A stretch of 64,000 nt of DNA from Candidatus Woesearchaeota archaeon (GCA_964540065.1 CAZIKY010000001.1:14798-78797), one strand, 5' to 3'. Shown: positions 3,055-28,740, numbered from the stretch's first letter. Numbers and translations are program-made. Notes: generated by a model from the sequence alone, not told the origin.

Positions 3055-3876
3055 TTACAGTTTTATTCTTTCCCGGTATAAAGCTGCCCTATTAGCCTCT
3101 TCCTTTGTTCTTCCCGGAGAAAACAATCCTTTTATCTTTGAAAGAAGTCTAGGATCGTTATATCTCTCTCCTATCAGGCAAGCAGCTAATTTCTTGTATT
3201 CTACACTGAGGTCATGAGAAGGATCATATAAAGAAGCAGGAGTTGCGTTTGCAAGCGCCTCAAGAACCTTTTCACTTTCTGGAAGAACTGCAAGCACGGG
3301 AACTTCTGAAAGATCTTCTACATCTTTAAGAGTCAGCTCAAAATTTTTACCCCTTCTTTTGTTCAAAACTAAGCCAGTTATAGGAGTATTCTTCTGCTTA
3401 GCAAGTTTTATCGCTCTAACCGTGCAGCTAAGAGTAGGATAATCCGGAGAGGTAACGACAAGAAGTTCATCGCTTGCAAGCATTGTCGCAAGTATCTCTG
3501 AATTTAAAGTCGGCGAAGAATCTATCAAAACAACATCATAATTCTTTTTGAAATCTCTCAATTTTTTCTTCAAAGCATAAACATCTACACTTCCGGAAGA
3601 GACTAAAGATCCCGGCATAAAATGGAAGCCTGCATCGTGAATATATGTGGCCTTTTCGGGCGCAGCCTTGCCCAAGATAACATCATGCACAGTAGATTTT
3701 TCTGGCTTAACAACCCCCAGATGCAATCCAAGGTTCGGTGCAGAAAAATTAGCATCAACAATTAGAACTTTTTTATTAAATTGATTAGCGAGAACTGCCC
3801 CGAGATTTGTAGTGACAGTCGTCTTTCCGACACCGCCTTTAATTGAAATCACTCCGATAGTCTTCGACATTTTCAC
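3055..3876 (-). CDS. ParA/MinD-family P-loop ATPase (deviant Walker A)
   Basis: N-terminus ...IGVISIKGGVGKTTVTTNLGAVLA... (KGGxGKT deviant Walker A), followed by a Walker B-like 'VVLIDSSP'. No CxxC motif, so not an Mrp/ApbC Fe-S carrier. Last gene of the minus-strand cluster that starts with the giant surface-protein gene. Confidence 0.85.
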   Translation of the reverse strand: MKMSKTIGVISIKGGVGKTTVTTNLGAVLANQFNKKVLIVDANFSAPNLGLHLGVVKPEKSTVHDVILGKAAPEKATYIHDAGFHFMPGSLVSSGSVDVYALKKKLRDFKKNYDVVLIDSSPTLNSEILATMLASDELLVVTSPDYPTLSCTVRAIKLAKQKNTPITGLVLNKRRGKNFELTLKDVEDLSEVPVLAVLPESEKVLEALANATPASLYDPSHDLSVEYKKLAACLIGERYNDPRLLSKIKGLFSPGRTKEEANRAALYRERIKL

Positions 3877-3881: not shown

Positions 3882-4781
3882 TTATTTGTAAACTTCTTTT
3901 ATTTCGCCGAGCATATAATGCCTGACTGAATTAGTTTTACTCTCCCCTTTCTTATCTAATTTATTGGGTTTTCCCTTTAATAAACCTTTCTCTTCACCGG
4001 GGACTTTCACCGACGGTGAAGGCTTAACAAAAGACAAAATTTTACTTGATCCGTTGGAGTCCATTTTCTTGGCCCCGATTACAAAATTCTTTTCATTTTG
4101 CACTTTTTTGGAAGGCTTATCATAAAGGTCTTTTATTTCTCCAGTTAATTTCTGTGAAGTCGTTTCTTTGTGGGGCTTTATCACTTTCTCAACCTTTGAG
4201 GCAATTTCCATAACCTTAGAAGGCTGAACCGAGGGCTGCTCAGATTTCTGCCTGCTTCTAAGATATTTCTCCTTTTCTTCTTGAACGATCGCAGAAACCC
4301 CTTTGTATTTGTCGGCTGCTAACCATCCTCTCCTTGGAATTGGAACTCCCTCATTCCTCTGTGAAAATGAAACGACTTGGCTCCTTTCACGAGGTTTCAT
4401 TATAGGATCCATTATAGCTGGACCGATTCCTCCAGAATGCTTGACAATCTTAAGCTCTCCAGAAGGCCCTTTTCGCAGATAGCTTCCAAGCTCCTTGTCA
4501 AATTTGCTTCTTTTCTTAAATGCGCCTAAAAGAGACAGAACTTCATTTTTAGAGCGATTTTTGACTCTCGAAATCTTATCTGAGAAAGGCTCTTCGACCC
4601 TAGTTCCGGGCATTATTCCGGAAATCTTTGAATGATTAGACCTCATAAGGTCTTTTTTAATTTCTTTATGTAATGGAGTTACATTTCTGACAACTTTTAA
4701 TTCTCTTCTAACTTCTCTTGGAATAAAATCTGCCTCCCCCTTTTTATTGGAAAAAAGTTTTCCTATAAATGAATTACTCAC
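3882..4781 (-). CDS. soluble basic protein paralogous to the cytoplasmic tail of the giant surface protein
   Basis: 299 aa, no TM. Segment LGSYLRKGPSGELKIVKHSGGIGPAIMDPIMKPRERSQVVSFSQRNEGVPIPRRGWLAADKYKG and C-terminal ...HYMLGEIKEVYK closely match residues near the C-terminus of the 6856-aa protein (...YLKKGPSGELKIVKPSGGIGPAIMDPIMKPRERSQIVSFSQRNEGVPIPRRGWFAADKYKG...EWMLGELKGVYD). DNA 4380-4470 is ~90% identical to 5880-5970. Confidence 0.7.
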   Translation of the reverse strand: MSNSFIGKLFSNKKGEADFIPREVRRELKVVRNVTPLHKEIKKDLMRSNHSKISGIMPGTRVEEPFSDKISRVKNRSKNEVLSLLGAFKKRSKFDKELGSYLRKGPSGELKIVKHSGGIGPAIMDPIMKPRERSQVVSFSQRNEGVPIPRRGWLAADKYKGVSAIVQEEKEKYLRSRQKSEQPSVQPSKVMEIASKVEKVIKPHKETTSQKLTGEIKDLYDKPSKKVQNEKNFVIGAKKMDSNGSSKILSFVKPSPSVKVPGEEKGLLKGKPNKLDKKGESKTNSVRHYMLGEIKEVYK

Positions 4782-4865
4782 AATCTTTCACCTCTTTCTA
4801 ATGTTCTTAGACCTAATGTAAATGAAGGATTTAGGGATATTAAAACCTTATTCTTTTCATGAAAA

Positions 4866-4882
4866 CTATGAATATTCATAGG
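4866..4882. promoter_or_regulatory. palindromic putative operator CTATGAATATTCATAGG upstream of gene 3882..4781
   Basis: Perfect 16-bp palindrome CTATGAATATTCATAG. Related copies sit upstream of two wHTH genes at 5159-5176 and 26306-26319. Confidence 0.5.
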
Positions 4883-4947
4883 AATATACCTCTTAATATT
4901 ATTACCTGTTAAAACCAATTCTGCATTCAGCAATAACCCTTTACCCA

Positions 4948-5142
4948 TCATCTCACAACCCATAAATTCACCCCTGCTTTTTTCATTCTTGTGACTTTTT
5001 CATCAAGTGCGAGCTCTAAAAGATGCTTTTCTGCAGTGTTCCATGAAACGCCAAATTCCTCGGCAATCTCGCTGGTTGTCACTACTTTAACCTTTCCCAC
5101 TTTCTCTATTATTTTCTTTTTTAGTTCACTAATTTGTACCAT
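4948..5142 (-). CDS. small winged-helix DNA-binding protein (paralog 1 of 3)
   Basis: 64 aa MVQISELKKKIIEKVGKVKVVTTSEIAEEFGVSWNTAEKHLLELALDEKVTRMKKAGVNLWVVR; helix-turn-helix plus wing pattern. ~75-80% identical to the proteins at 5227..5424 and 26043..26240. Preceded by a palindrome at 5159-5176. Confidence 0.7.
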   Translation of the reverse strand: MVQISELKKKIIEKVGKVKVVTTSEIAEEFGVSWNTAEKHLLELALDEKVTRMKKAGVNLWVVR

Positions 5143-5158
5143 CTTTTTTGTGAATAAA

Positions 5159-5176: not shown

Positions 5177-5226
5177 ACTATTAATATTAATATAACTATT
5201 AGCAAAACCTAAAATTCCATGCATTT

Positions 5227-5424
5227 TCATTTTACTACCCATAAATTCACCCCTGCTTTTTTCATCCTAGTAATTTTGCTATCAAGTGTAAGTTCAAGCA
5301 AATGCTTCTCTGCAGTGTTCCATGAAACCTTCAATTCTTCAGCGATTTCGCTTGTAGTGACTACTTTGGTCTTTTCAACAAGCTTCATTATTTCCTTTTT
5401 GAAATCACGGCTGTCCATTTTCAT
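5227..5424 (-). CDS. small winged-helix DNA-binding protein (paralog 2 of 3), start overlapping the stop of the giant gene
   Basis: 65 aa MKMDSRDFKKEIMKLVEKTKVVTTSEIAEELKVSWNTAEKHLLELTLDSKITRMKKAGVNLWVVK. ATG (5424-5422 on the minus strand) overlaps the TAA (5426-5424) of the 6856-aa ORF, giving TAATG. Confidence 0.7.
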   Translation of the reverse strand: MKMDSRDFKKEIMKLVEKTKVVTTSEIAEELKVSWNTAEKHLLELTLDSKITRMKKAGVNLWVVK

Positions 5425-8400
5425 TAATCATAAACTCCTTTTAGCTCTCCAAGCATCCACTCCCTTACCGCAGCAGAATTATCCCCTATGCTTTTTTTCT
5501 GAGATTCTTTTTTCTTTGATACCATTTTTACATTAGATTTAGCCGAACCGCTAAAGACCGATCTAATCCTAGTTGCATCTTTAGCCCCAATTACTGCTCT
5601 CTCGACTGGCTTGGAATAAACTGCTTTAATTTCCCCTGCAGTTTTATTAAGAATCGAAACTGGCGCAGGCAATATCTTTTCCAGTCTGAAAGCTTTGTCA
5701 ACTTTAGCTGCAAGTCCACTTATTTTTGACGGCTGCACTGAAAGCTGGATAGCCCGCTCTCTGCTCTTAAGATATCTCTCTCTTTCTTCCCGCACAAGAG
5801 AAGATATTCCCTTATACTTGTCGGCAGCAAACCATCCTCTCCTTGGAATTGGAACTCCCTCATTCCTCTGAGAGAATGAAACGATCTGGCTCCTTTCACG
5901 AGGTTTCATTATAGGATCCATTATTGCCGGACCGATTCCTCCAGAGGGCTTGACAATCTTAAGCTCTCCAGAAGGCCCTTTCTTCAGATATCTTTCAAGA
6001 TCTTTGTCAAGTTTGCTTCTGTCCTTCAAGCCATCCCACAACGAGGTGAATTCTTTCCTGATTCTGGCTCCGCTTCTTCTGAACTTTTCAGAAACCGGAT
6101 CTTCAACAAATGAAGGTTCAACTATAGGAGATAACTTAGAATCTTGCTTCTTGAAGTTAAACTTAAACTCTTTCTCAAACAAAGGAGCTTTCCTTTCAGA
6201 GATCTTTGAAGGGCTTAAAGGTTTATGAGGTTTAATCTTTATTTCTCTGTACTCTTCATTTCTTGAACTGAAGATCTTCTCCCCGATCTCGACAATAGAA
6301 GAAATTATCTGTGTCCTCTTCCTTGAATTCAGATAGCTGTTCAACTCTTTATCAAGATTATTATTTCTCGTACTTAAACTGTAAGGTACTTTTTGCTTTA
6401 CCAGAGACTTATTGCTTAGGCTCTTCTGCAGCTGTTCAAGCTCAAATTGAGATTTGGCAGAGGATAAATCAAGCCATTTTTCAGAGAATTTAGGTTTATT
6501 CTGCTCATTTTTCAAAGGAAGTTCATTAACATGGACATAAGAGCCTGAGCCCAACTGTCCTCTCTCGCCATAGAAAACCGGCCTCTTTACTCTCTCATGA
6601 TAATAATTTGTTTTAAAAGAAATAGTTCTGCTTATAGACTCTCCGAGTCTGTCGAAGTAGTTCTTGAAAGGAACATCATAGTGCTTTCTAATAACCCCGA
6701 AGATCCAGCCGTCAGTCCTTTCTAGATACCTTGTTATTACAAATTCGTCATGCTTTCTTCTTCTCCAAGCTATGATAAGCAGCAAGACTAAGAACAATAT
6801 CAATGCAGTCCACAAAATCATCTCCCAAGGAATCTCTTTCTTCTCCACTACTGGGGCAGGTGTAGGAGTCATACAGACTCCATTCTCGCAGTTCTGGCTC
6901 TTGCAGTCAGAATTAAGGTAGCATCTCTTTCCATTATCGCATCTTTCAGAGCAAGTCTTTCCTCCGCAGTCTACATCGCTTTCATCCTGGTTCAGCTTAT
7001 TATCTTTGCAGAAGCTGACTGGTGCAGCAACTTCACATTCTTCATCCAAGGCAGGCCTGTCATCAGTGGTTCCGCAATTATTCTGGTCACTGCAGAACCT
7101 GCTTCTCAATCCTCCAGAGCATGCGCTCCATTCAGTGCAGATCCAGTCTTCTTCACAAACCGGAGTCACAACAGCGCCTCCGCCACCGCCTCCTCCTCCG
7201 CCACCGGAAGGTGCAGGCGCTGCAGGAAGCACAACTGAGAAAGTTACATTCTTGCTGTCAAGATTTCCGGCACTGTCATTTGCAAATGCAATTAGGGTTG
7301 TCGAACCTTCAGGGAAGGTCACATTTACAGGAGAGGTGTAAGTGATATTTGTTCCATTGAAATTATAGAAAATAGTATTCACCCCAGATCCATTGTCCGT
7401 AGCAGACAGATTAACAAGGATAGACTGGCTGCTGTAAGTGATATTCTCCGGACTGTGTATTGTCACATTTGGTTTTATCGTATCCACTGTAAACACTCTG
7501 GTCGCATTTCCGCTGTTTCCTGCAGTATCGTTAACTGTAGCATTGAGAGTTATCGAACCTTCAGGGAAGGTTACAAAGTGTGTAGTGTTATAAACTGCAA
7601 AAGTTCCATTCCAATTATATCTTACAGTGTCAACAGTTCCATTAGGCCCATTAGTAGTGGTTAGGTTCACAAGGATTGTCGCATTATTGTATGTTTTGTT
7701 CTCAGGGCTTACAATCGTAACTGTAGGAGCAGTCACATCAACAGTAAAGGTCACAGTTGCAGATCCTAAATTGCCTACAGTATCATTAGCATAAGCCTTC
7801 AAAGTTATAGATCCTTCAGTAAAGTTAACTATTACTGGAGAGGTGTAAGTAGTGTTTGTGCCGTTCCAATCAAAGAATATCGTAGAAACTCCTGCTCCAG
7901 AATCTGTAGCGCTTATATTTACTAAAAGAGTCCGATTATTGAAAGTTGCTGTTGTAGGATGTATTATTGTAACAGTTGGTGCGGCCGAGTCTACAAAGAA
8001 CAAAATACTGCTTTCATTTGTATTTCCTGAAGTATCATTTGCAATTACAGTCAGGTTATAAGTTCCATTCTGAGGTGGCAATGTGAAAGTGGTATTGTAC
8101 TTATTGCCTGCAACGTTAGTTAAGTTAAACTCATTCACCGCATTGTCTGGATATCTTATTCTTGCGATTACATTATTAACTGCGATATTGTCCGTTACAT
8201 TTGCAGCCACTTCTATCACAGAAGATAAAGCGAAGAAGCTTCCATTCAAAGGCCTAAGATCAAAGACTACTGGCTTCGTTCCATCAGAAGCATTGAAGAA
8301 AGTTGTTTCACTGTTATTAACACTTCCACTAGAGTCATTCGCGAAGAAGCTTACATTGTATCTTCCGAGAAGCTCAGGTATTGCGAATGAAGCATTGAAC

Positions 8401-11400
8401 TTTCCGCTGCTTGTTGCTGGACCGCTTACATTTGTTAAGGTCAGCTGCTGCACAGTCCCATTAGGGAAAGTTACATTTGCTCTTACAGAGCTTACATTTG
8501 CAAATACAGTTGTAACATTAGCGGCGATTTCAATAACATTCGAAGTATTGAAGCTGCTGTTAGCTACTGGTCTAAGATTTTCAACCTTAGGGATTACACT
8601 TCCGAAAGTTACTGTAAGCTGGGCAAAGTCTGCTCCGAAAGCAGCATCATTTCCGTTAGTTGTAATGGTCACATTTATCTTATACCTTATTTGCACAAGT
8701 TTAGTTGTGCTATTTACGAAATCAACAAAAGATCCTCCTAAAGAGGTTGTAGCATTACCCTCATTGATAATGCTTCCATTATATGTTCCAACCTGCTGGA
8801 AAGCTCCTGCTGTCCAGTTGAATAACTCTATAGCAGTTGAATTCTCAGCTACTCCTCCTGGAGCGGATCCTCCGCATGTGAAAGCCCCAGTAGAATCATC
8901 ATTCAAGCAGTGCTCAAGCAAGAAAGTCATGTTTGTTATATCCGAAGCTGAAGCCCCACTAAGCACCCCGCTTAAATTATATGTCAGGTTAAGATGTGTA
9001 TTAAGATCGTTCTGAGCTCCAGCGCCATTGTTCCTTCTTACTGCAAAGTAAACTTGGTCATTTGCCTGTGTAGCAGCAAATGTATTTACCACTTCACTAT
9101 GTCCCTCTCCGAAAGGATCATAAGATCCTTGATCAGGGGTTCCATTTGTAGGATTTTGCTCGGAGAATCCAGGATCTGTAGCATTGTTAATCGTTATAGT
9201 GTAAGTTTCTCCAGGAGTCAAGTTTCTGACAAAGGAATATCCATCATTGCATGTAGTTGTAGAGATTGTAAAGTTCTCACACTTGTAAAGCACAGTTCCG
9301 TTCGCTACTGCAGTCAGGTTTATTGAAGTGAAGTTCAATCCAGAAGGGTCTATGCCGTATGTCTGGGCAAACAAGCTTGAATCGTTCGTCCTGTTTGCAA
9401 TCTTAATCAAAGCGTAAGGTGAAGTTTCAGAGTACCCAGAGACAATTAAAGAGGAGATAGTCTGATTTGTAAGATTTACTGTTACTGTAAGTATTCCAGA
9501 GGAATTCAAGATGACAACTTGAGCGTTATTTATAGAATCTCCGGCAGGATTTACTACATCAAACGTTCTGTTGCCTTCAACGACTCTTGTGAATATAACT
9601 GTAGTTGCATTATTGACATTATTCAAAGTGTCATTTGCTATAATCCTTACAAGATAAGTGCCCTTCTGATCTAGATCCGAGAAAGTGGTGTTGTATGATG
9701 CACTTATATTGCTTGTCTGAAGATCTGTTGTGCTTCCATTAGGGAAAGTGATTCTAACTAGCACAGTATCTACTCCCGTGCTATCTGTTACCAAAGCAGT
9801 CACGCCAACAGTATCGTTCACCCTAAATGTGCTTCCATTTGTTGGGGAAGTGATTGTAACTGAAGGGTTGTTCAACTCACTTACAATAAAGTGCGTCTTT
9901 TCAGTGTTATTCAAATTATTGCTCGTATCATTTGCAACAATAGTCACATTATACCTTCCTTGAAGATCACTAGGCACGCTAAAGCTGGCATTAAACTTGT
10001 TTCCAGAAGTATTGTTTAGAGTCAAAGTGTTTGTAGCTCCATCTGGATAGGTTATTGTGGCTAAAACAGAACTTACAGCAACATTATCGGTAACATTGGC
10101 TGCAATTTCTATAGTTGAACCTAAATTGAATGTTGAGCCATTCAATGGAACTAAACCGGTAACATTTGGATTGATTACATCTAATGCATTGAAGAAAGTA
10201 GTTGAAGTGCTATTTGCATTATTATTTGTATCATTTGCAATGTAAGTGATATTGTATCTTCCAATCAAACTACTTGGCACAACAAAAGATGTATTGAATT
10301 TGTTGCCAGTAACATTTGTCAAAGTTAATTGCTGCACAGTTCCATTAGGCAAGGTTATATTCACAATCACAGTAACTGGGCCGTCATTATCTGTAGCATT
10401 GGCTGCGATTTCTATAGTTTGAGATAAGTTGAAGCCGCTGCCATTTGTAGGCACTAATCCGAATACAGAAGGCTTGATTGTATCTCCAACAATGAAAGAG
10501 GTAGTTGTAACATTGACATTGTTGTTAGTATCATTAACAATGAAAGTTAAGTTGTATTGTCCTTGAGGTGTGCTTGGTATTGTGAAGCTTGTATTAAACT
10601 TGTCTCCAGTTACATTTGTCAAAGTCAACTGCTGGACAGTTCCGTTAGGTAATGTCACATTCACAAGCACTGTTCCAAGAACGCCATTGTCAGTTGCATT
10701 TACAGCAATCTCAATTACATCAGAGACATTGAAGCTGGATCCATTAGAAGGTATAAATCCAAAGACTGCGGGCTTGGCAGTATCGTTTGCTATAAAGAAT
10801 GTTGTTCCAGTGCCGTTCACGTTTCCAAAGGAGTCGTTTGCTACAAAAGTTAAGTTATATCTTCCCTGAAGAGCGTTAGGTATTATAAAGGAAGTGTTGA
10901 ACTTATCTCCCGTAGTATTTGTCAAAGTAAGAACTTGGACAGTTCCATTAGGCAAAGTCAAGTTGGCCTTCACAGAATTTATCTGTCCGCTGTTTGTAAC
11001 ATTAGCCGATATTTCAACCACATCCGAAACATTGAATTGCGTTCCATTAACGGGCCTTAAGTCGAACACGCTTAAAGGAGTAGTATCTACATTTATTGTT
11101 ACATTTTCGGGGTTATTTACATTTCCGGAAGTGTCATTAACGAATACGCTCACAACAGTTGTTCCTTCAGGGAAGGTTACAAACACTGGAGAAGTGTAAG
11201 TCTGATTTGCAGTTCCGTTAAAGAACAATATTGTACTGACTTGGAAGTTATCTGTAGCAGTTATGTTCACCAGGATAGTCGCATTAGTGAAATTTCCCGC
11301 AGATGGGCTGTTAATTGTTACTTGAGGCCTTGTAATGTCATTGACAGTAAAGTTAGTCTTCTCACTAGAGTTAACATTCCCAAATGTATCGTTAGCGATT

Positions 11401-14400
11401 ATTGTTACATTATAGACTCCTGGAACATTGCTGCTCGAAGTTGCAAAGATAGTCGTATAAGTTGCTCCAGACAAAGCCATTGTTTGATTCTGCACAGTTC
11501 CGTTCGGCAAGGTGAATTGAGCAATCACCTTATCAACAGATGTTGTTGCATCGCTTACTGTAGCCACAATAGTCGTTTCTTGTGTCTGATTGATAGAAGC
11601 TTTAGTTGAAGCTACTCCTGTCACACTTGGAGGCACAGAATCTATGAAGATCGTTACCGATTCTGTATCATTCAAGTTTCCAAAAGTATCATTTGCATAA
11701 ACTCTCATTACAGTTGTTCCTTGAGGGAATGTCACAAAAACTGGAGAGGCGTAAGTTTGATTTGCAGTTCCGTTAAAGAACAATACATTCTCAACCGCAT
11801 TATCATCAACAGCAGTTATGTTGACAAGAAGGGTTGCATTAGTGAAGTTGCCGCTTGCAGGACTTACTATAGTAACGTTAGGATTAACCTCATTTGCCAA
11901 AACGAAGAAAGTTGTACTTGTAGAATTGACATTATTTGTGGTGTCATTTGCAGTAAAGGTTATGTTATAGGTTCCAGGCAAGTTAGGTATGCTGAACGAA
12001 GTGTTAAACTTGCCGCCATTTGCAAGAGGGCCAGACACATTTATCAAAGTAAGCACTTGCAAAGTTCCATTTGGCAATGTTAAGTTAACACGCACATCAC
12101 TAACGGCAATATTATCTGTTACATTAGCCGCAATCTCAATATTTTGAGCCACACTAAATGTACTATTAGCAACAGGTATTAATCCGGAAACAGACGGTTT
12201 CTCACTATCTCCCCCTATGAAAGAAGTCCTAGCAGTGCTATTCACATTATTATTAGTATCATTAGCGATGTAGGTTATATTATATGTTCCCTGTATGCCT
12301 GAAGGCACAATAAATGAATTGTTGAACTTAGGGGTGCTTCCAACCTGAGACAAAGTCAAAACGTTTACAGTTCCATTTGGCAGAGTAACATTAGCTAAAA
12401 CGGCATCTATGACTCCATTGTCCGTAACATTTGCAGCGATTTCGACGACCTGGCTTGTATTAAACACCGAGCCATTTACCGGAAGTAATCCAGAGACTGC
12501 AGGGTTAATTGTATCTCCGACAATGAAGGTCGTAATAGTTGTGCTGTTCAGATTGCCATTTGTATCATTTACTAAGAAAGTCAAATTATATTGCCCTTGA
12601 GGAGTATTCGGAATAGTGAATGAACTATTGAATTTATCTCCTACAACACTTGCTAAAGTAACTAGCTGAGAAGTGCCATTAGAGAAAGTGATATTCGCAA
12701 TAGCTGAACTTATAACGCCATTATCGGTTGCATTTATTGCAATTTCAATCACATCTGAAGCGTTGAAGCTTGTTCCATTTGCAGGGACTGCCCCAAAGAC
12801 TGCAGGTCTAACAGTGTCATTTGAAATGAAGAATGTAGTCTCAGTCGAATTAACATTATTGCTCGTGTCATTAGCAATGAACGTTATATTGTATCTTCCT
12901 TGAGGGGTGTTTGGTAGAGTGAAACTAGCATTATACTTGCTTCCAGTAGCTAAGCTCAAGTTAAGCTGCTGTACCGTTCCATTAGGGAATGTTACATTAG
13001 CTCTCACAGAGCTAACTCCGAAGTTGTCGGTTACGTTTGCAGCTAATTCAACGGTGTCAGAAGCATTGAACTGAGTTCCTGCAACAGGAACTAAACCTAC
13101 AACAAGAGGTTTTGTTGTATCTCCGCCTATGAAGAAAGTTGTTTCCGTGTTATTTACATTGTTATTTGTATCATTTGCAATGAAAGTTACATTATATCTT
13201 CCAGCTATATTTGGTATGCTGAAGGAAGTGTTATACTTGTCTCCCCCAACATTTGTTAAGACAAGGTTATTTGTCGCACCATTAGGATATTTCAACTGGG
13301 CCTTTACAGTATCAACGACTCCATTGTCGGTCACATTTGTCGCGATTTCTATGCTTACAAGAGTAGGGAATGTAGTGTCATTTGGAGGGATAAATCCAAA
13401 GACACTAGGCTTTATCGTATCATTCGCGATAAAGAAGGTAGTTACAGAACTGTTTACATTGTTTTTAGTATCATTCGCGATAAAGGTTAGGTTGTACCTT
13501 CCTTGAGGTGTGTTTGGTATTGTGAAGGAAACATTGAATTTGTTTGCAGCACTGTGATTTGTTATCGCACTTACATTTGTCAAAGTCAGCTGCTGCACAG
13601 TTCCATTAGGGAATGTTACATTTGCTAAAACTGCACTTATGTTTGAAGATAAGTCACTTATATTAGCGGCTATTTCAACAACATCTGAAACATTAAATGT
13701 AGCTCCAGCATTTGGAGATACAATATCGATAGACGGGCCAAAGATATCGCTTACATTGAAGAAAGTTCTTTCAGTGTTGTTAACATTATTGCTGCTGTCA
13801 TTAGCAAAGAAGCTTACATTATACCTTCCGCCAAAGTCAGGTATTGTGAATGAAGCATTATACTTATCTCCCCCTGCGTTAACCAATGCAAACTCTTCAA
13901 ATGCCCCATCTGGATAAGTGACTGTAACTGAAACTGTGCTTACTGCCACATTATCTGTGACGTTTGCAGCTATCTCTATGACGCTAGTAGCTGCAAAGTG
14001 GCTTCCATTAACTGGGATGAGGCTAAATACTCTTGGAGCCAAAGTATCATTTGCATTAAAGAAGCTTGTTACAGAGCTGTTTACATTGTTATTTGTATCA
14101 TTTGCAATGTAAGTCAGATTATATCTTCCAGCAAGATTAGGGACAGTAAAGGAAACATTGAATTTGTCTCCAGTTGCATTTGTCAAAGTAAGCTGTTGCA
14201 CCGTTCCATTTGGCAAGGTTACATTTACAATTGCAGCGCTTATAACTCCGTTGTCTGTTATATTGGCTGCAATCTCTACAATATCTGCGATGTTAAATGA
14301 GCTCCCATTAATAGGCCTAGAATCAAAGACTGCAGGATTTATTGTATCTCCAACAGTAAATACTGTAACTACTGTGCTATTCACATTGTTGTTGCTGTCA

Positions 14401-17400
14401 TTTGCTATAAATGTAACATTATACTGTCCCTGAAGATCATTTGGAATAGTGAATGAAACATTATACCTGGAGCCGTTAGCCAAGCTTAATGTTAAAACAT
14501 TTACGGTTCCATTAGGCAAGGTTACATTTGCAGTAACAGAACTTACTGCGACATTATCTGTAACATTTACTCCAATTTCGATAGTGTCCGAAACATTGAA
14601 AGACGTTCCATTAGCAGGAATCACCCCGGATACTGCCGGAACAAGAGTGTCTGCTACAGTGAAGAAAGTCTTCTCAGAACTGTTTACATTATTGTTAGTA
14701 TCATTTGCAATAATTGTAACATTATAAGTTCCCTGCAATACTGGTATTGTGAATGAAGTGTTGAACTTGTCTGTGCCAGAAATTTGGCTGAGTGTTAGGA
14801 CATTTACAGTTCCATTTGGCAAGGTCACATTTGCAATTACTGCACTTATCACTCCATTGTCGGTTACATTTGCAGAAACTTCAATTATATCAGAAGTGTT
14901 GAAGCTGCTTCCATTTGTAGGCAACAGCTCGAACACGGCTGGCCTAATCGTGTCTCCAACTATAAATGTGGTCGTGGTGCTACTATTTACATTGTTATTT
15001 GTATCATTTGCTATGAAAGTTAAGTTGTACTGTCCTTGAGGTGTGCTTGGTATCGTGAAGCTTGTATTAAACTTGTCTCCAGTTACATTTGTCAAAGTCA
15101 ACTGTTGGACAGTTCCGTTAGGTAATGTCGCATTCACAAGCACTGTTCCAAGAACGCCATTGTCAGTTGCATTTACAGCAATCTCAATTACATCAGAAAC
15201 ATTGAAGCTAGTTCCGTTTGCAGGAACTGCTCCAAAGACTGCAGGATTAATTGTGTCTCCAACAATAAAGTTGGTAGTTATGCTGCTATTCAGGTTATTA
15301 TTGGTGTCATTTACTAAGAAAGTCAAATTATACTGTCCCTGAGGTGTGTTTGGTATTGTGAAGGAAACATTGAATTTATCTCCACCAACACTAGTCAAAG
15401 TCAGCAACTGAGATGTTCCATTAGACAAAGTCAAGTTAGCTATAACTGAACTTATTACTCCATTGTCTGTTGCATTTACTGCAATCTCTATTACATCCGA
15501 AGAGTTGAATGATGTCCCTGCTGCAGGTATGGCTCCAAACGCTGCAGGCTTTACCGTGTCATTAGCAATAAAGAAAGTTGTTTCTGTGGAATTCAAATTA
15601 TTGCTCGAATCGTTAGCAATGAAGGTTATATTGTACCTTCCCTGCAATGCTTGAGGTATCGTAAAGGAAGCATTGAATTTATCTCCCAACACATTTGTCA
15701 AATTCAAGACCTGTACTGTTCCATTAGGAAGAGTCACATTAGCTTTTACTGCACTGACTGCAAAGTCATCTGTAACATTAGCAGATATTTCTACGACATC
15801 TGAAACATTGAATGCCGTGCCATTTACTGGCTTGATATCAAGGACTGAAGGCCTTGCTTGATCTCCTCCTATGAAGAAGGTAGTTTCAGTATTGTTGACA
15901 TTATTGTTCGTGTCATTTGCAATGAAGGTAACATTGAATCTTCCATCAATATCTGGAACAGTGAAAGAAGTATTGAATTTATCACCCCCCACATTGGTTA
16001 AAGTCAAGGTATTGGTTGCTCCATTAGGATATTTGATCTGGGCCCTTACTGTACTTATTACTCCATTATCCGTTACATTAGCTGCGATTTCAATCACATC
16101 AAGACTTCCAAAAGTCGTTCCATTTGGAGGGACAAGTGCAGCAACACTTGGCCTTATAGTGTCATTTGCAGTGAAGAAAGTTGTATTCGTCCCAAGGTTA
16201 TTCAAAGTATCATTCGCTATGAAAGTAATGTTGTACCTTCCCTGCAGAGCATTAGGAATAGTGAATGAGACATTAAACTTGTTTGCAGCACTGTGATTAG
16301 TTATAGCACTTACATTTGTAAGAGTCAACTGCTGGACAGTTCCGTTGGGGAAAGTAACGTTTGCAATAACTGCGCTTAAATTAGAATTTCCGTCAGAGAC
16401 ATTAGCGGATATCTCAATTACATCTGAGACGTTGAATAAAGCTCCATCACTAGGAGAAGTAATTATTATTGATGGGGCAAAGACATCCCCTACTTCAAAG
16501 AAAGTCGTCTCAGTATTGTTGATGTTATTGGATGTATCATTCGCAAAGAAGCTTACATTATACCTTCCGCCAATATTTGGAATACTTAATGAAGCATTGT
16601 ATTTATTCCCTGCAGCATTTACAAGAGTAAGATCGACAGTCGCCCCATCAGGATAAGTTACTGTAGCAGAAACAAAGCTTACTGCCGCGTTATCCGTAAC
16701 ATTAGCGGCAACCTCTATGCTCGTGAGACTAGTAAAGTTAGTTCCAGCAGAAGGGATGAATCCAGATACCTGTGGAGCGGAAGTGTCATTTACTTCAAAG
16801 AAGCTTGTTACTGAGCTGTTTACATTATTATTTGTATCATTGGCAATGTAAGTCAAATTATATCTTCCAGCAAGGTCTGGAATAGTGAAGCTAGCATTGA
16901 ACTTGTCTCCAGAAACATTTGCCAAAGTTAAAGTTTGTAAGGTTCCATTAGGCAAAGTCAAGTTTGCCACCACTGCACTAATCACCCCATTATCAGTCAC
17001 ATTTGCAGATATTTCAATGACATCTGCAACATCAAATTGGCTGCCATTTACCGGTCTGACATCGAAAACTTCGGGCTTTATTGTGTCTCCTGCAACGAAG
17101 AAAGTTGTTTCTGTAGAGTTTACATTATTAGCAGTATCGTTCGCAATATAAGTTATGTTATATTGGCCTTGAGGAGTATTTGGCAGGGTAAAGGAGGTAT
17201 TGAATTTATCTCCCAACACATTTGTCAAATTCAAGACCTGTACTGTTCCATTAGGAAGGGTTACATTGGCCAAGACTTTGCTTATAGCAACATTATCCGT
17301 AACGTTCACAGCCACTTCTATTGTGTCTGAAACGTTGAAGCTGCTGTTTGAAACGGGCCTAAAATCAAAGACTAAAGGACTAGTCGTATCTGCTACATTA

Positions 17401-20400
17401 AATGAAGTCGTTTCAGTAGAATTCACATTCCCTGCAGTGTCATTAGCAATAAACCTCGCAGAATAAGTGCCCTCCAAGCCAGAAGGCAAAGTGAAGGAGG
17501 TATTGAATTTACCCCCATTAATCAAAGGCCCGCTTACATTTGTCAAGGTCAAAACTTGAACAGTCCCATTAGGAAGAGTAATATTAGCACTTACAGAATC
17601 TACTCCTGAGAATTGTTCGGTCAAATTAGCTGCTATTTCAATAGTTGCTGAAGAGGTGAATGAAGAGTTGTTTGCAGGAACCAATCCGGATAATCTTGGG
17701 GCAACAACATCTGTTGCCTCTACAGTGAAATTAACCAAAGAAGCGCTTATTGGCGGGAAGGTTAAAGTTTTAAGAGTAGTATTTACGACAGTGTCATTAG
17801 TCAAATCGAAAGTCCCGCTGGAGTTCGTGAAGTTAACTGTAAATCTCGCTTCTTCATCTCCTTCAGGCAAATAAGTAGAATAATTGGTAAAGACAGTTAT
17901 ATTTCTTATGGATCCAGTTTGCACAAAGATGGTTTCCAAATCAACTCTCCATCTTTTTACAGTAGTCTCATTAAGCGTAAAGGTTTCATTATCTATCAAA
18001 GCATTTTGATATTCTACCCGAGCAGTATTATTTATAGCGCTGCTTCCACCTATAAACTCAGTCCGATAGTTTATGACGTTCCCGGTAAAAACAGTCAAGT
18101 TTTCAAGAGGCATCAAAGACACATTATCTGATGCCCAGAATCCGCCTGTCGAGTTATAAACCCTGGTTTTATTCGCTATGACTCTCTGCCCAAATCTACC
18201 GAGAACTTCTAATGCTTGGAACAGATTTATTCTTCCACTATTAGCAGAGGTATTATTGAGCAAAATTGTATGGTTAACTGTGACGTTAAGCGTTTGATCT
18301 GGCCCTATTGTTAAATTGAAGCTTTCCTGCTTGTTTTCAATTATCTCTGTAATCACGTTAAGGGGTTCTGGATGGTGAATTTCTAGATTAACCTCCTGAT
18401 CAGAATAATTATAGAACAAATTAACCGAAACATTGGTCGTACTTGAAAGGCTCGAGTCTGCATCGCAATGTATATGCATAGATAAGAAATTTGTTTTTCC
18501 AATGGTAACACCATCTAGGGTAGCATTTTGCTCGAACAAAGTAGGGGTCGTTGTTAGGCTGCCTGAAGGCTCTCCACATAGTTCATAGGTGTCTTCTAAA
18601 TTCGATGTGGATAAGTGATAACATAGTTTTGGCTTGCAAACATTGTTCGCGGAAGCAGATAAGTTTGCCCTCATAGTTACTATCCCCTGCATGTTGAAGT
18701 TTCTTAAGAAGCTGCAAGGCACATTAGTATTAGAGCCACAGAAGAAGATTCTCAAGCCATTCACATCAGTTTGATTAGGGGAAATAGACATATTAAAAGT
18801 CTTATTTACATATGAGGTAGAGTTAGGTGCAACTTTAGATAGCCAGGTAGTGGAACTAGATAGATTATTATCTGTTCCTCCAAAGAAGATGTTCCCAGTA
18901 TTAATTATGTAATTAAGCCAGAAAGTGCTTGCGACAGTGCTGCTTGAAGCAGCATTCATTGAAGGAGAACTGCAGCTCAGAGTATAATTAGTTATGTCAA
19001 ATTCTATGGTATTGTCTAGGCTTCCAGAATAATTCCCAGTAGTACTGTTGAAAGTAAGTGTAGTCACAGAATTCGAATTATTTGAGGTAACATTACATGT
19101 CCCATCGACTATAGGGGCAGAATTTATTGGATTAACATAACTTGCCTCAAATAAAATAAACACTTTGACTCCAAAATTTGGATTTTCTTCTGCAGTTGCC
19201 GCGGTTCCCTGGAAGTATTCAGTCTTATCTGTGGAAAGAGTGGCATTTGAAACCCCATCAAAGGTGAAATTTGTTCTTTCGGTGGAATTCAAATTATTGC
19301 TCGTATCATTAGCAATAAATGTTACGTTATATGTCCCTTTAAGATTTGGTATACTGAAAGATTGATTGAACTTATCTGTACCCGTAACTTGATTGAGTGT
19401 TAGTACATTTATCGTTCCATTTGGAAGAGTGACGTTTGCTAAAACAGTGTTTATCTCAAAGTTATCTGTAACATTTGCAGAGATTTCAATTACACTTAGA
19501 TTAGAAGCATTAAATCCGCTTACCGGCCTTAAATCAAACACTAAAGGTCTAACCGTATCTCCGCCTATGAAGAAAGTTGTTTCCGTGTTATTTACATTGT
19601 TATTCGTGTCATTTGCGATGAAAGTTACATTATATCTTCCAGTAACGCTTGGTATTGTGAAGGAAACATTGAATTTATCTCCTCCCACCGAAACCAGTGT
19701 GAGAGTATTTGAAGCTCCGTCAGGATAATCAATTTTAGCTAAAACTTTGTCAATTACTCCATTGTCCGTTACATTTGCGGCGATTTCTATTACACTTAAG
19801 CTAGGGAATGCACTCGAATTAGGCGGAACCAAACTTGCAACTGAAGGCCTAATCGTATCATTGGCTATAAAGAAGGTAGTAACCGTGCTGTTGACATTGT
19901 TCCTAGTATCGTTCGCAATAAAGGTTATATTATATCTCCCTTGAAGATTGTTTGGAATCGTGAAAGAAGTATTAAACTTCCCGCCGTTAGCAAGCGGCCC
20001 AGAGACATTAGTCAGAGTTAAAACATTAACAGTTCCATTTGGAAGTGTAAGATTAGCCGACACAAAACTTACATTGGAATCTGAATCTGTAACATTTGCA
20101 GAAATTTCAACTACATCCGATACATTAAATACTGTCCCGTTAGTAGGTGTAGCATTTATAACTAAAGGTGCAAATGCATCTCCGGCTATGAAGAAAGTAG
20201 TTTCTGTATTGTTTATGTTTCCAATTGTATCCTGCGCAAAGTAGCTTAGATTATATCTTCCTTCGATATTAGGTATAGTGAAGGAAGTGTTGAACTTATC
20301 TCCATTAGGATTAACCAGACTTAAGGTAATCGTGGCCCCGTCTGGGTATGTTACAGTTACATTAGCTGAAATTGAGCTAAGGTCTGTGATATTTGCTGCA

Positions 20401-23400
20401 ATCTCTATTGTTGCATTCGTCAAGAAGTTAGTTCCAGCAGAAGGAATCAAACTAAAGACTAACGGACTTTCATTATCTGTTACTTCAAAGATAATTATTT
20501 CAGTGTTATTTAGGTTATTATTAGTATCGTTCGCGAGGAATCTTACCGTATAAAATCCTCCTTCTCCAGGAGCAGTAAATGAGGCGTTGAATTTATTCCC
20601 CGTAACATTTGCCAATGTCAGCAATTCTGCAGTTCCGTTAGGGAAAGTTATATTCGCAATAACTGTACTGATAACACCATTATCGGTCACATTTGCAGCA
20701 ATTTCTATCGTATCCCCAACAGTAAAGCTTGTCCCATTCAAAGGCTTTAGGCCAAATACTGCGGGCCTAACAGTATCATTTGCAATGAAGAAGGTAGTTT
20801 CAGTAGAGTTTACATTATCTGAAGTATCTGTTGCGATGAACGTGATATTGTATCTTCCCTGAGGAGTATTTGGAAGGGTGAAGCTTCTATTGTACTTGCT
20901 ATTGCCAACATTTGAAAGTGTCAGATTTTGAACTGTTCCATTAGGGAAAGTTACATTAACTGAAACAGCGGCAACTGCTCCATTATCAGTGACATTAGCA
21001 GCAATCTCAATAGTATCTGAAACATTGAATTGAGTCCCATTTACTGGTGTGACGATTATAACATTCGGGGGAGTCGCATCTCCCTGCAGCAAGAAGGTCG
21101 TGGTAGTGCTGTTTACATTATTATTGGTGTCATTAGCAATAAACGTAATGTTATATTGTCCGACCAAAGATGGCACGGTAAAGGAAGTGTTAAACTTCCC
21201 TCCGCCAATAAGGGAGCCGCTTACATTTGTCAAAGTCAAAACGTTTACAGTTCCATTTGGCAGGCTTATGTTTGCCAAAACTGTATCGATGACTCCGTTA
21301 TCAGTCACATTTGCAGCTATCTCAATAACCTGAGAAGCCATAACATTTAGGCCTTCAGGAGGGTGGACTGAAACTACTCTTGGATTTACAGTGTCTCCTG
21401 CAATGAAATTAGTTATAGTCGTAGCATTAGTGTTCCCCGTGGAATCGTTAGCAATGAAAGTTATATTATACTGACCCTGCAATTCGTTAGGAATTGTGAA
21501 GGAAACATTGAATTTGTCAGTCGAATTAAATTGACTTAAAGTCAAGACATTTACTGTGCCATTTGGCAAGGTTAAATTAACTCTCACGGTCTGCAGATCC
21601 AAATTATCCGTTACGTTAGCGGCTATTTCAACAACATCAGATACATTAAAGGATGTCCCATTTTGAGGAGATAATAGTGTAACTGAAGGATTCCTTGTAT
21701 CTCCTGCATTGAAAAATGTCGTTTCAGTGTTATTCACATTATCATCTGTATCATTGGCGAAGAAGGTCAGGTTGTATCTTCCCAAAATATTAGGTATTGT
21801 AAAGCTTGCGTTGAACTTATCTCCGACAGAATTGTTTAAGACAAGAGTGTTTACTGCCCCATCAGGATAAACAATCGTCACAGAGACAAAGGATAAGACT
21901 CCATTATCCGTTACATTAGCTGCGATCTCAATTGTATCAGTCAAACCGAAATCTGTATCTTCAACTGGAACTAAGGAGGAGACCAAAGGAATTTGCGTGT
22001 CTGCCCCTATGAATGTCGTTGTTTCAGTGCTGTTGACGTTTCCCCTAGTATCATTTGCAATTATCCTTACAGTATATTGCCCTATCAAACCAATAGGGAT
22101 TGTAAAGCTGGTATTGTACTTTGTTGTGCTTGTATTTGTCAAAGTTAAAGTCTGCACAGTTCCATTTGGAAGGGTGACATTTGCAAGTACCTGACTCACA
22201 GCTGAAAGGTCATCAGTCACATTCGCAGCTATTTCTAAAGTTTCAAGCAAATTGAATGTCGTACCGTTTGCAGGCACTAATCCGATAACTGATGGAGGAT
22301 CAAAGTCGCCGCTGAAGAAGTGAGTTTTCTCAGTGTTGTTTGTATTTCCATTGGTATCATTTGCAACAATAGTCACATTATATCTTCCGATCAAATTTGG
22401 AACCAAGAAAGAAGTGTTATACTTATCTCCTACAGCGTTAGATAATGTCAAAGTGTTTATGGCCCCATCAGGATATTGAACAAGGGCCCTTACAGTTTGA
22501 ATTACTCCATTATCCGTGACGTTTGCGGCAATTTCTATGGTAGATAGAACCTCAAAGCTTGTTCCTGCAACGGGGATCAGGTCAAATACAGAAGGTCTAA
22601 CCGTATCGTTAGCTATGAAGAAGGTTGTTTCGGTATTGTTTACATTATTATTCGTGTCATTAGCAATGAACGTGATATTGTATCTTCCTTGAGGGGTGTT
22701 TGGCAGAGTAAAAGAAGTGTTGAATCTTGTGTTATTGCTAAGAGGGCCGCTAATATTCGCCAAAGTAAGTAGCTGAGAAGTCCCATTAGGGAAAGTTATA
22801 TTGGCTAATAAAGCGCTTATGACTCCATTATCTGTAACATTGGCTGCAATCTCAATGGTGTCAGAAACATTGAATGGTGTTCCATTTGGTTTAAAGTCAA
22901 AAACTCTTGGGTTAATAGTATCTCCTACAGTAAAGTTGGTCCTTTCAGTAGTATTGAAAGAGTTGCTGGAATCGTTAGCAATGAAGGTTATATTGTAGGT
23001 TCCTTGCAGATCATTTGGTATGTTGAAGGAGGTGTTAAACTTGCCTCCAAGAGAGAGCAGTCCACTCACATTGGTCAAAGTTAGCTGTTGTACCGTTCCA
23101 TTAGGGAAAGTTATATTGGCACGGACAGCACTTACAGCTACATCATCAGTCACATTTGCAGCTATTTCAATTACGTCTGAGGTGTTGAATGAAGTGTTGT
23201 TTACCGGCCTTAAATCAAAAACACTTGGGATCGTCACGTCATTAGCAATGAAGAAAGTTGTTGTTGTAGAATTAACGTTATTGCTTGAATCGTTCGCAAC
23301 AAAAGTAACATTATATCTCCCAGTGATATTGTAAAGAGTAAAGGAATTGTTGAACTTATTAGTTGTGCTGTTATGGCTAACTAAAGCGCTCACATTATTC

Positions 23401-26042: not shown

Positions 26043-26240
26043 TTACTTTACAACCCAGAGATTCACCCCCGCTTTTTTCATTCTAACAATTTTTTGGTCG
26101 AGAGTTAGCTCAAGAAGGTGCTTTTCTGCAGTGTTCCAAGAAATCTTCAGTTCTTCAGCGATCTCGCTAGTAGTGACTACCTTAGTTTTCTCTACTAGCT
26201 TTATGATCTCCTTCTTGAGATCGATCCCTCTCTCTACCAC
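26043..26240 (-). CDS. small winged-helix DNA-binding protein (paralog 3 of 3), 48 bp upstream of the giant gene
   Basis: 65 aa MVERGIDLKKEIIKLVEKTKVVTTSEIAEELKISWNTAEKHLLELTLDQKIVRMKKAGVNLWVVK. Confidence 0.7.
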   Translation of the reverse strand: MVERGIDLKKEIIKLVEKTKVVTTSEIAEELKISWNTAEKHLLELTLDQKIVRMKKAGVNLWVVK

Positions 26241-26305
26241 TTTTCTTTATATCCAGTACTGAACACTCATTGTATGATACATTATAGTATACATTACATC
26301 ATACA

Positions 26306-26319
26306 TATGAATATTCATA
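26306..26319. promoter_or_regulatory. palindromic putative operator TATGAATATTCATA upstream of wHTH gene 26043..26240
   Basis: Same motif as 4866-4882, in the AT-rich divergent intergenic region 26241-26406. Confidence 0.5.
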
Positions 26320-26363
26320 AATAAGGCTAAAGGTAATATATAAACCTTACCTCATACATAAAT

Positions 26364-26428
26364 CGTGTACATATGTACATAAAGAAAATATTTAAATAGT
26401 GTACATGTGTACATAAATAATGTACACT
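26364..26428. promoter_or_regulatory. cluster of TGTACA palindromes (GTGTACATATGTACAT ... GTGTACATGTGTACAT ... TGTACACT) in a divergent promoter region
   Basis: Five TGTACA hexamers within 65 bp between the divergent genes 26043..26240 (-) and 26407..26913 (+). Confidence 0.4.
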
Positions 26429-26913
26429 ATAAAATGATTCCGAAAAAAGAGAGCACAATTGAGAGATCATTCGAAAAATGTCAAAAAACATTCGTTCAGA
26501 TAGACCGGGCAAGTTATTTGACCTATAAAGAAGAAGCTTTGAGCGATTTGGATTCTGCCTACAAAGAGCAAAAAGAAGGAAATGCTAAATGGGCCATAGT
26601 TAAAGCGTATCAAGCATTGTTTCTTCAATGTACTGCAGTCTTAGTAAAAAATTTAGGGATATATTCTAAAGATCATGGTTGCCTACTGATTGCGTTGCTG
26701 AAAAATAATCTTCTTAAAAAAGAAACATTTGAAAAAGTAAAAGGTCTTTTGAATAATAAGGCGACAATTTACGAAGAGATTGATCATATTAGAATTTTTA
26801 GGAACAAAGCATTATATTTCCCAAAGGTTCAAAGTAAAATTGGCCAAGAAGATACTGAAAAAACCCTCAATGAGATAAGAGAAATAATATCTTTAATTGG
26901 AGAGCATTTATGA
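26407..26913 (+). CDS. hypothetical alpha-helical protein; possible HEPN-like partner of the adjacent nucleotidyltransferase
   Basis: 168 aa; its stop overlaps the start of the next gene (ATGA at 26910). No clean Rx4-6H motif is visible, so the HEPN call is tentative. The true start may be the internal Met (MIPKKE...). Confidence 0.4.
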   Translation: MYINNVHYKMIPKKESTIERSFEKCQKTFVQIDRASYLTYKEEALSDLDSAYKEQKEGNAKWAIVKAYQALFLQCTAVLVKNLGIYSKDHGCLLIALLKNNLLKKETFEKVKGLLNNKATIYEEIDHIRIFRNKALYFPKVQSKIGQEDTEKTLNEIREIISLIGEHL

Positions 26914-27524
26914 TAAATCAACTTCTACCACTTTCAAGAAAGAAAATTGAAACTTTAAGATATATCTACGAAAACGACTCTGCACATCTTAGACGAATAT
27001 CCTTAGAACTTGAAATTCACCCATATCAATTGAAGAAGATAATAGACGAATTGGTTTCGAATAAAATTTTGGAGCAGAAAAAAGTAGGGAAAACGATCTT
27101 ACTAAGCCTCAACAGACTATCAGAGAATATAGAACAAGTGTTTTATCTAATAGAAGGTTATAAGCAAGAAAGTGAGAATAAGGTTCTTAAGAATATTATC
27201 AAAAATCTTTGGATTTTTTCAAAAAACTCGGAAATATTAAGTTGTTGCGTGTTTGGTTCTTATGCAAGGAGTGCAGAAACGAAAGAAAGTGATGTAGATG
27301 TATTGTTTATAGTGAAAAATAAAAACATTGGGCAGGATATTATAAAAAAAGTTTCTCAAATAGGAACCCTGCTCCATCTAAAATTTAGCCCCGTAATAAT
27401 GGATGAAAGGGAATTCTTAAGAGCAATTGAGATTAAGGAGCCCACTTTACTTACTATAATAAAACCTTCTCAAAGAATAATCACTTTTGGGATAGAATAT
27501 TTTCTGAAGCAAACTTATTTTTAA
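26910..27524 (+). CDS. winged-helix plus minimal nucleotidyltransferase (MNT) domain protein
   Basis: N-terminal HTH (LRRISLELEIHPYQLKKIIDELVSNKILEQKKVGKTILLSL), then the NTase signature 'CCVFGSYARSAETKESDVDVLFIV' (GS...D.D). Confidence 0.65.
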   Translation: MINQLLPLSRKKIETLRYIYENDSAHLRRISLELEIHPYQLKKIIDELVSNKILEQKKVGKTILLSLNRLSENIEQVFYLIEGYKQESENKVLKNIIKNLWIFSKNSEILSCCVFGSYARSAETKESDVDVLFIVKNKNIGQDIIKKVSQIGTLLHLKFSPVIMDEREFLRAIEIKEPTLLTIIKPSQRIITFGIEYFLKQTYF

Positions 27525-28708: not shown

Positions 28709-28740
28709 ATTTTTAAATCAAACAAACTTCCTTAGATTGT

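Follow-up and report, generated by a model that had tools for sequence, protein, structure and literature searches.

Archaeal autoregulated wHTH repressors, such as MDR1, Phr and the Lrs14-type proteins, have a palindromic operator that lies at or just downstream of the TATA box. The giant surface proteins of the ultra-small DPANN archaea are thought to mediate host attachment, and the archaea with such proteins are almost all uncultured. To our knowledge, nothing is known about the control of their expression. AspA of the Sulfolobus plasmid pNOB8 binds a 23-bp palindrome that precedes its own gene and from there extends across >200 bp, and the archaeal SegAB system has two sites that are tens of bp apart (PMC5120986).

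In the 64-kb stretch of DNA analyzed in this study (the window), the minus strand carries a chain of genes in which small wHTH proteins accompany a giant surface protein. Three palindromes stand in this chain, and they are probably the autoregulatory operators of a family of small stand-alone wHTH proteins found at giant surface-protein operons. The genes and palindromes are as follows.

26043..26240, minus strand, wHTH-3 (65 aa), first gene of the operon
5424..25994, minus strand, giant surface protein (6856 aa), 3' of wHTH-3
5227..5424, minus strand, wHTH-2 (65 aa), without a palindrome; its best upstream match has 4 mismatches
4948..5142, minus strand, wHTH-1 (64 aa)
3882..4781, minus strand, free-standing paralog (299 aa) of the C-terminal tail of the giant protein
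3055..3876, minus strand, MinD/ParA-type ATPase, last of the chain
26305-26320, palindrome ATATGAATATTCATAA (minus-strand reading TTATGAATATTCATAT), termed site 1, in the promoter of wHTH-3 and the giant gene
5160-5175, palindrome CTATGAATACTCATAG with 1 central mismatch, 5' of wHTH-1
4866-4881, perfect palindrome CTATGAATATTCATAG (0 mismatches), 5' of the tail-paralog gene

The gene identities given in an earlier note on this DNA, i.e., three wHTH proteins of 64-65 aa and a 299-aa tail paralog, hold. The tail paralog, which is presumably cytoplasmic, is 49% identical to the C-terminal tail of the giant protein over 269 aa (E 6e-71), and the ATPase matches the minD_arch model (TIGR01969) with an E value of 2.7e-47 and 161 bits, which is under the curated cut-off of 201.75. 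The stop codon of the 6856-aa giant gene and the ATG of wHTH-2 share bases (ATGA, 5421-5427), an overlap that suggests translational coupling of wHTH-2, as one of the regulator copies, to the 3' end of the giant ORF. The 20.6-kb giant gene has a direct repeat on either side, formed by wHTH-3 (26043-26240) and wHTH-2 (5227-5424); the two proteins are 85% identical, the mean column identity of the three-copy DNA alignment is 81%, and the identical runs are short. Such repeats could in principle cause the giant gene to be deleted or amplified. Another giant ORF, of ~3100 aa, is located on the minus strand at 54634-63966, with its start at about 63942-63966, and the end of the preceding gene (...LVIENLKKLQNEK, followed by the stop) overlaps its ATG. 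Neither a wHTH gene nor a palindrome is found in the 58 nt visible 5' of this second ORF.

The claim of three near-identical palindromes, each 5' of a minus-strand gene start, is borne out in its coordinates, and the palindromes are far beyond chance. When up to 3 mismatches are allowed, the window contains 5 matches, where 0.62 would be expected, and this number was attained in none of 100 shuffles. A 20-bp weight matrix trained on 90 sites, all from other genomes, gives 25.9 bits for the palindrome at 4866 (the best of the window), 24.2 bits for that at 5160, and 22.8 bits for that at 26305. The next-best score is 11.0 bits, within the giant coding sequence, and the maximum in randomized sequence averages 11.5 bits; no further promoter with the palindrome was found when the full window (64 kb) was scanned with the matrix. 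The palindrome at 5160-5175 is nested in an 18-bp palindrome, CCTATG-N6-CATAGG, at 5159-5176, and the perfect 14-bp core of the one at 26305-26320 corresponds to 26306-26319. The distances to the gene starts, all on the minus strand, are 84 nt to the GTG at 4781 (tail paralog), 16-17 nt to the ATG at 5142 (wHTH-1), and 64 nt to the GTG at 26240 (wHTH-3). A palindrome had been assigned to each wHTH cassette, and this part does not stand, because wHTH-2, with its ATG on the stop of the giant gene, lacks one. The equivalent of wHTH-2 in the relative L004, unlike that in the window, has its own palindrome.

Among the three window copies, identity is 81-94% in the palindrome and 20-60% in the flanks. 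The regions of 4866 and 5160 are 94% identical in the palindrome and 50-60% identical in the flanks and share descent by tandem duplication of about 280-295 bp; because of this common ancestry, these two copies are not fully independent observations. Homology of the two that reaches well past the palindrome is what would be expected if the repeats were by-products of tandem duplication, or RNA hairpins or terminators, with no role as operators, and a terminator scan does flag 5176-5159 as a hairpin with a T-run that folds better than its shuffles (z -3.4). We consider this explanation very improbable. The palindrome is kept across dozens of genomes with unrelated flanks, and this conservation excludes a mere duplication remnant, while the site 5' of the first operon gene has nothing to terminate. 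The hairpins of the three palindromes have energies of -3.6 to -9.6 kcal/mol, and only one of them folds better than shuffled sequence. Symmetric variable positions are complementary no more often than by chance, i.e., in 30 of 90 cases for positions 1/16, 46 of 90 for 6/11, and 57 of 90 for 7/10, with 27.9, 45.1, and 60.3, respectively, expected if the positions are independent. The absence of covariation and the weak RNA hairpins argue for a protein-DNA site rather than a nucleic-acid structure, and the candidate of an RNA hairpin or terminator was rejected on these two points and on the presence of sites 5' of first genes.

The loci compared across genomes comprise 80 from one-genome-per-species contigs and two long contigs, and a site was taken as CTATG-N6-CATAG with at most 1 mismatch, within roughly 150 nt 5' of a wHTH match. 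Such a site is present just 5' of 50 of the 73 wHTH genes in the genome-collection loci. Among the 23 genes without it, many have versions with 2 mismatches, and some are downstream copies in tandem arrays. The density of sites is 3.83/kb upstream of wHTH genes vs 0.019/kb in the other 372 kb, and a site occurs in 0 of 599 AT-matched control windows and in 9 of 1460 shuffled upstream regions. On loci outside the training set, the matrix scores 25.2 and 21.7 bits (L085), 23.3 and 23.2 bits (L087), and 18.6, 16.4, and 14.1 bits (L083). The palindrome, with the consensus wTATGAATATTCATAw, accompanies the wHTH family in most of the 82 loci and is essentially absent elsewhere in them, and in the sequence examined from these genomes its association with wHTH genes is exclusive. 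The window palindromes are local copies of this site, which stands 5' of the wHTH family in over 50 related genomes. As for the exact 16-mer, 5 of 108 distinct metagenome matches and 0 of 18 viral matches are located beside a wHTH gene, and the remaining matches are scattered over unrelated DNA regardless of G+C content. Outside wHTH-encoding genomes the 16-mer thus has no diagnostic value, and the specificity inside such genomes is unaffected by this result.

The same data bear on whether the palindrome is bound by some other, unlinked factor, or is an unusual core-promoter element, with the wHTH protein doing something else. TATA-like sequence borders the A/T-rich site or overlaps with it, the protein is linked to the site by co-occurrence, and the wHTH fold is also found in eS25 and Zalpha, which are non-regulatory. 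The site is, however, no general feature of promoters, being absent from all 599 AT-matched windows and from every other promoter in the 64 kb. The site also stays with the wHTH gene while the downstream context changes among a giant gene, a ~260-aa protein, and an ABC ATPase, and it precedes internal tandem wHTH copies as well. Together with the conserved recognition helix described below, these observations make an unlinked factor or core-promoter element quite unlikely in our view.

The wHTH proteins of this family are 63-68 aa long, and the family is narrow and highly conserved, with no curated model of its own. A word-indexed search returned 178 homologues, and clusters at 50% identity with E <=1e-10 numbered only 31 among 1.84 billion representatives; the records that bear the wHTH gene are named Nano-, Woese-, or Pacearchaeota. 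The AlphaFold2 model (32-sequence alignment, pLDDT 89) has the order H1-b1-H2-H3-b2-b3 and is a confidently predicted minimal wHTH. Its Foldseek matches are generic wHTH structures, including Zalpha, ZitR/MarR, AspA of pNOB8, HlyU/ArsR, and eS25 (TM about 0.75-0.9). The Pfam matches of the three window proteins are weak and extend over many HTH families, none of them clearly matched. HTH_DeoR (PF08220) scores 23.8-24.1 bits, barely over its cut-off of 21, and PF04703 (FaeA), which has a cut-off of 20.7, scores 21.9 for wHTH-1, 18.9 for wHTH-2, and 18.7 for wHTH-3, with other HTH families scoring alike. DUF7342 scores 21-24 bits against the three window proteins, eS25 (PF03297) scores 20-21 bits, under its cut-off of 28.8, and all NCBIfam matches of the wHTH proteins are far under the cut-offs. 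Identity with eS25 was rejected on the basis of its sub-cut-off score and of the three tandem or flanking copies beside the surface-protein gene. Membership of the DeoR family was likewise rejected, as the window proteins have 64-65 aa and consist of the HTH alone, with no C-terminal sugar-phosphate-binding/oligomerization domain.

In the recognition-helix stretch SWNTAEKH, S-W-N-T and E39 are invariant among the 32 aligned members, and the rest is at least 90% conserved; the recognition helix SWNTAEKHLLEL is common to all three window paralogs. A near-invariant recognition helix paired with an invariant half-site is the usual signature of a cognate pair, and it is this pairing that argues further against an unlinked factor. 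The 65-aa protein has no obvious separate dimerization element, and binding as a dimer is thus an assumption.

Around the window palindromes, the following promoter elements are recognized.

26337..26348, minus strand, predicted BRE/TATA box AAGGTTTATATA, which matches orthologous promoters
5188..5195, minus strand, putative A/T-rich TATA-like element TTATATTA, 12 nt 5' of the palindrome
4893..4904, minus strand, putative A/T-rich TATA-like element TAATAATATTAA, 11 nt 5' of the palindrome
26261..26320, minus strand, five 12-nt units with ATG in phase, TTATGAATATTC / ATATGTATGATG / TAATGTATACTA / TAATGTATCATA / CAATGAGTGTTC
26257..26272, degenerate second palindrome (minus-strand reading CAATGAGTGTTCAGTA), aligned by MAFFT with the other two palindromes

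In the main promoter of the window, the palindrome is located 16 nt further on from AAGGTTTATATA (26348..26337), and the orthologous promoters read AAGGTTTAAATA-N10-CCTATGTATCCTCATAGG (L001) and AACCTTTATATA-N10-CCTATGTATACTCATAGG (L002). Across the lineages examined, TATA-like boxes are positioned 0-16 nt 5' of the sites. The gap of 10-16 nt in the window is unlike the abutting layout that is common in other lineages. In many of the latter, site 1 directly adjoins a T/A-alternating, TATA-like stretch and another palindrome extends over the start codon, which results in proteins with MNIH N-termini (ATG AAT ATT CAT). If the TATA box is centered near -26, transcription is predicted to start within the palindrome, near 26314 in the main promoter, and the same is predicted for all three window promoters.

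The ATG inside each window palindrome opens a short minus-strand ORF, i.e., 4778-4879 (MNIHSFHEK..., 33 aa, the TGA of which overlaps the GTG of the tail paralog), 5129-5173 (MSIHRFIHKKDGTN, 14 aa), and 26247-26318 (MNIHMYDV..., 23 aa). The same palindrome ATG is the true wHTH start in many homologues, which have MNIH N-termini, and the short ORFs of the window may be remnants of such a start or, alternatively, small upstream ORFs. Two further features were observed around the wHTH-3 promoter. A 19-nt inverted repeat, CGAAAAATGTCAA[G/A]A[C/A]ACA, which is unique in the window and has 17 of 19 positions identical, is present at 25982-26000 and 26472-26490; one arm lies over the ATG of the giant gene and the other over the ATG at 26478 of a divergent HEPN ORF, so that the repeat brackets wHTH-3 and its entire promoter (471 nt). 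It could represent a sequence context common to the two translation starts, or the two arms could delimit an invertible segment; no recombinase gene was seen near it. On the side of the wHTH-3 promoter that faces the divergent genes for HEPN (26407..26913) and a nucleotidyltransferase (26910..27524), the segment 26366-26417 contains TGTACATA-type repeats and the palindromes GTGTACATATGTACAT and GTGTACATGTGTACAT, and this array is a candidate second operator for a different regulator.

The five-unit array spans the region from site 1 to the degenerate site 2, as aligned in the register table, and TRF reports a period of 12 at 26277-26306. Degenerate site 2 is 48 nt from site 1 and 17-32 nt 5' of the GTG at 26240, which is the same offset from the gene start as that of the wHTH-1 palindrome; that the site at this homologous position is degenerate speaks against the operator reading. 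Over 74 homologous upstream regions, self-identity is 0.412 at lag 12, 0.384 at lag 24, and 0.376 at lag 36, with a baseline of about 0.31, and coding controls have 3-nt periodicity only. Several loci have ATAGGTAT-like units every 12 nt between two sites, and the spacings between two full sites in the inspected loci include 24, 36, 48, and 60 nt.

This phasing raises the possibility that the palindrome nucleates an extended nucleoprotein complex like that of AspA, in which dimers load and then spread over the 12-nt repeats; with the MinD/ParA-type ATPase of the window lineage, such a complex could serve in positioning or like a centromere, or it could silence the giant gene. AspA itself binds a palindrome 5' of its own gene and spreads (PMC5120986), and Foldseek ranks it among the best matches (4rs8 and 5k5q; TM about 0.82, rmsd 1.1), although the structural match is generic, with Zalpha, MarR, ArsR, and eS25 equally good, and the identity with AspA is about 21%; a profile search of PDB sequences returns no AspA. 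The periodicity at 12, 24, and 36 nt, the paired sites 24, 36, 48, or 60 nt apart, and the five phased units of the window all fit spreading, but spreading also fits ordinary repression, with no centromere implied. The MinD-type ATPase closes the gene chain in the window and in L004, where an 83% identical gene is found, yet its synteny holds only with the closest relative, and in the 82 related loci it adjoins the wHTH gene in only one. No ParB-like adaptor is present, and what is conserved downstream are genes for surface proteins rather than for segregation. We regard an AspA-like complex as unlikely; what keeps it as a minority reading is the similarity in fold, the phasing of the repeats, and the neighboring MinD-type ATPase. 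A related and rather improbable speculation is that wHTH dimers polymerize from the palindrome over the promoter and the 5' end, which would make a dedicated silencing or switching device for giant-adhesin operons, in the window lineage perhaps coupled to the MinD-type ATPase and possibly to the 19-nt inverted repeat. If this is true, a polymerizing device sets when a DPANN cell displays its host-attachment protein.

The reading of the palindromes as operators of the small wHTH proteins, with autoregulation, had been proposed in the earlier note and is strongly supported by comparative genomics. In this operator model, the two TATG/CATA half-sites, which are about 11 bp apart, would be occupied by wHTH dimers at the predicted transcription start, and the bound protein would occlude RNA polymerase and thereby cause negative autoregulation. 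One type of regulator would act on three promoters, the first for wHTH-3, the 6856-aa surface protein, and wHTH-2, the second for wHTH-1, and the third for the free tail paralog and probably the MinD-type ATPase that follows it. The phased partial half-sites and the degenerate site 48 bp away suggest cooperative occupancy of the start region by multiple dimers. We infer the assignment of the regulator to the site from co-occurrence only; the start sites, the oligomerization and stoichiometry, and the sign of regulation are likewise predictions. Repression fits best because the site is downstream of the predicted TATA box, with activation or dual action as less likely alternatives.

The module takes the order of a TATA box, the palindrome, often 12-nt repeats with a second palindrome, the wHTH gene, and a giant surface-protein gene; its hosts are Woese-, Pace-, and Nanoarchaeota (DPANN), and a ~260-aa protein often precedes the giant gene. 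Giant proteins encoded directly 3' of the wHTH gene have 4819 aa (L001), 5559 aa (L002), and 3941 aa (L083), and a dozen further ORFs of more than 1000 aa 3' of wHTH genes run off their loci. The ~260-aa protein is located between the wHTH gene and a long ORF in 47 of the 82 loci (L040:3159-3941, L054:993-1772, and 45 others), and in all 14 inspected loci it is followed by an ORF of more than 640-770 aa that runs off the locus. It has an N-terminus resembling a class-III signal and conserved cysteines, has no Pfam match, and has no homologue in the window. Identification of these ORFs as ParA/MinD was rejected, and with it a general partnership of the wHTH with ParA, as tblastn finds the ATPase in L004 only and the ORFs belong to a family of their own. 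Other genes, e.g., one for an ABC ATPase, follow the wHTH gene in a few loci. In the closest relative, the single-cell genome AM-311-I10, the order is palindrome, wHTH, 5559-aa giant, palindrome, wHTH, palindrome, wHTH, wHTH, and MinD, which is the layout of the window and thus counts for the operator reading. The module heads the giant-adhesin operon itself, a widely conserved role and a point absent from the earlier note.

Control of the tail paralog had also been claimed there. The full-strength site upstream of the gene makes such control plausible, and a parallel is found in L083, which belongs to an unrelated lineage. At L083:9073-9935, an 18.6-bit palindrome lies on the start codon of a gene for a 286-aa protein, directly 5' of the wHTH gene and the 3941-aa giant. 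By eye, the 286-aa protein looks like the C-terminus of the giant, with a Cys-rich stalk, a transmembrane segment, and a tail, and the locus appears to be an independent parallel to the operator and tail paralog of the window.

Co-regulation of the pilin gene, with a half-site in its promoter, had been put forward as a possibility, and it is not supported here. The half-site ATATTCATAG is present at 40100-40109 in the promoter of the pilin gene (40141..40587), but it is at chance level. Scored as a full site, it reaches 3.1 bits and rank 12, and about 18 such sites are expected by chance; the exact 10-mer ATATTCATAG, for which 0.24 occurrences are expected in all, is seen once outside the palindromes and shares part of its sequence with the TATA-like TTTATATT. 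The closest orthologous pilin promoter, that of an 82%-identical pilin, reads TATCTTCATAC, in which the key G is lost while the region is otherwise conserved, and three more distant orthologous promoters have no site, the maximum at the pilin loci being 6.7 bits. Pilin co-regulation was therefore rejected, on the 3.1-bit score and on the loss or absence of the site in orthologous promoters. Assembly of type IV filaments is probably encoded by the minus-strand cluster at 27521-40587, which adjoins the pilin gene (40141..40587; class-III signal MTKRGQAALEFLMTYGW). This pilin belongs to a very large family, with 4983 homologues at E <=1e-5.

The wHTH protein and its palindrome provide a concrete, widely conserved candidate regulator-operator pair, in which a 65-aa wHTH (SWNTAEKH) is matched with wTATGAATATTCATAw at the head of giant operons. 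The pair is testable with synthetic DNA and recombinant protein alone. It is usable for the prediction of regulons in any Woese-, Pace-, or Nanoarchaeota genome and for flagging loci of giant adhesins along with the accessory genes, namely those of the ~260-aa protein and the tail paralogs, and it offers a handle on the regulation of the presumed host-attachment proteins of uncultured archaea. The literature searched contains no description of the wHTH family or of its link to DPANN giant surface-protein operons.

Some databases name the homologues of these wHTH proteins after PapI/FaeA (PF04703) or the DeoR-type HTH (PF08220), and the profile scores of 19-24 bits single out no HTH family. PapI and FaeA are similar in that they are stand-alone wHTH regulators of roughly 70 aa that act on surface-fiber (fimbrial) operons. 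PapI, however, acts via Lrp at GATC-containing sites and without a palindromic operator, and nothing comparable was seen here, whereas DeoR regulators have a large C-terminal effector domain that is absent from the present proteins. Like SegB of the archaeal SegAB system, beside which it is set by description, the wHTH protein is a small, putatively site-specific DNA-binding protein with imperfect palindromes 5' of an operon that has a ParA-type ATPase; on the other hand, the gene order differs, and the conserved partners of the wHTH gene are surface proteins rather than the ATPase. AspA (4rs8 and 5k5q) resembles the present proteins in its wHTH core (TM about 0.82) and in the palindrome 5' of its own gene, the phased repeats found here are compatible with spreading, and a ParA/MinD-type ATPase is downstream in the window as it is in the AspA system. 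In contrast to that system, no ParB gene is present, the link to the ATPase is confined to the clade of the window, and the extra C-terminal dimerization helix of AspA is missing.

The closest likeness in promoter layout is to MDR1, Phr, and the Lrs14-type repressors. In both cases, a small wHTH protein has an inverted repeat 5' of its own gene, positioned after the TATA box (here a predicted one) and before the start codon, where the bound protein would block RNA polymerase, and the regulator is co-transcribed, here presumably, with its target genes. Unlike those repressors, the wHTH described here is bare (63-68 aa), without a sensor or a separate dimerization domain; its operator is often within the start codon and accompanied by 12-nt repeats in many genomes, its gene is present in 2-4 tandem copies in many genomes, and its targets would be DPANN operons for giant surface proteins. 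Small wHTH regulators that control themselves through a palindromic operator are a familiar kind, whereas the present family and its link to giant operons are undescribed in the literature searched.
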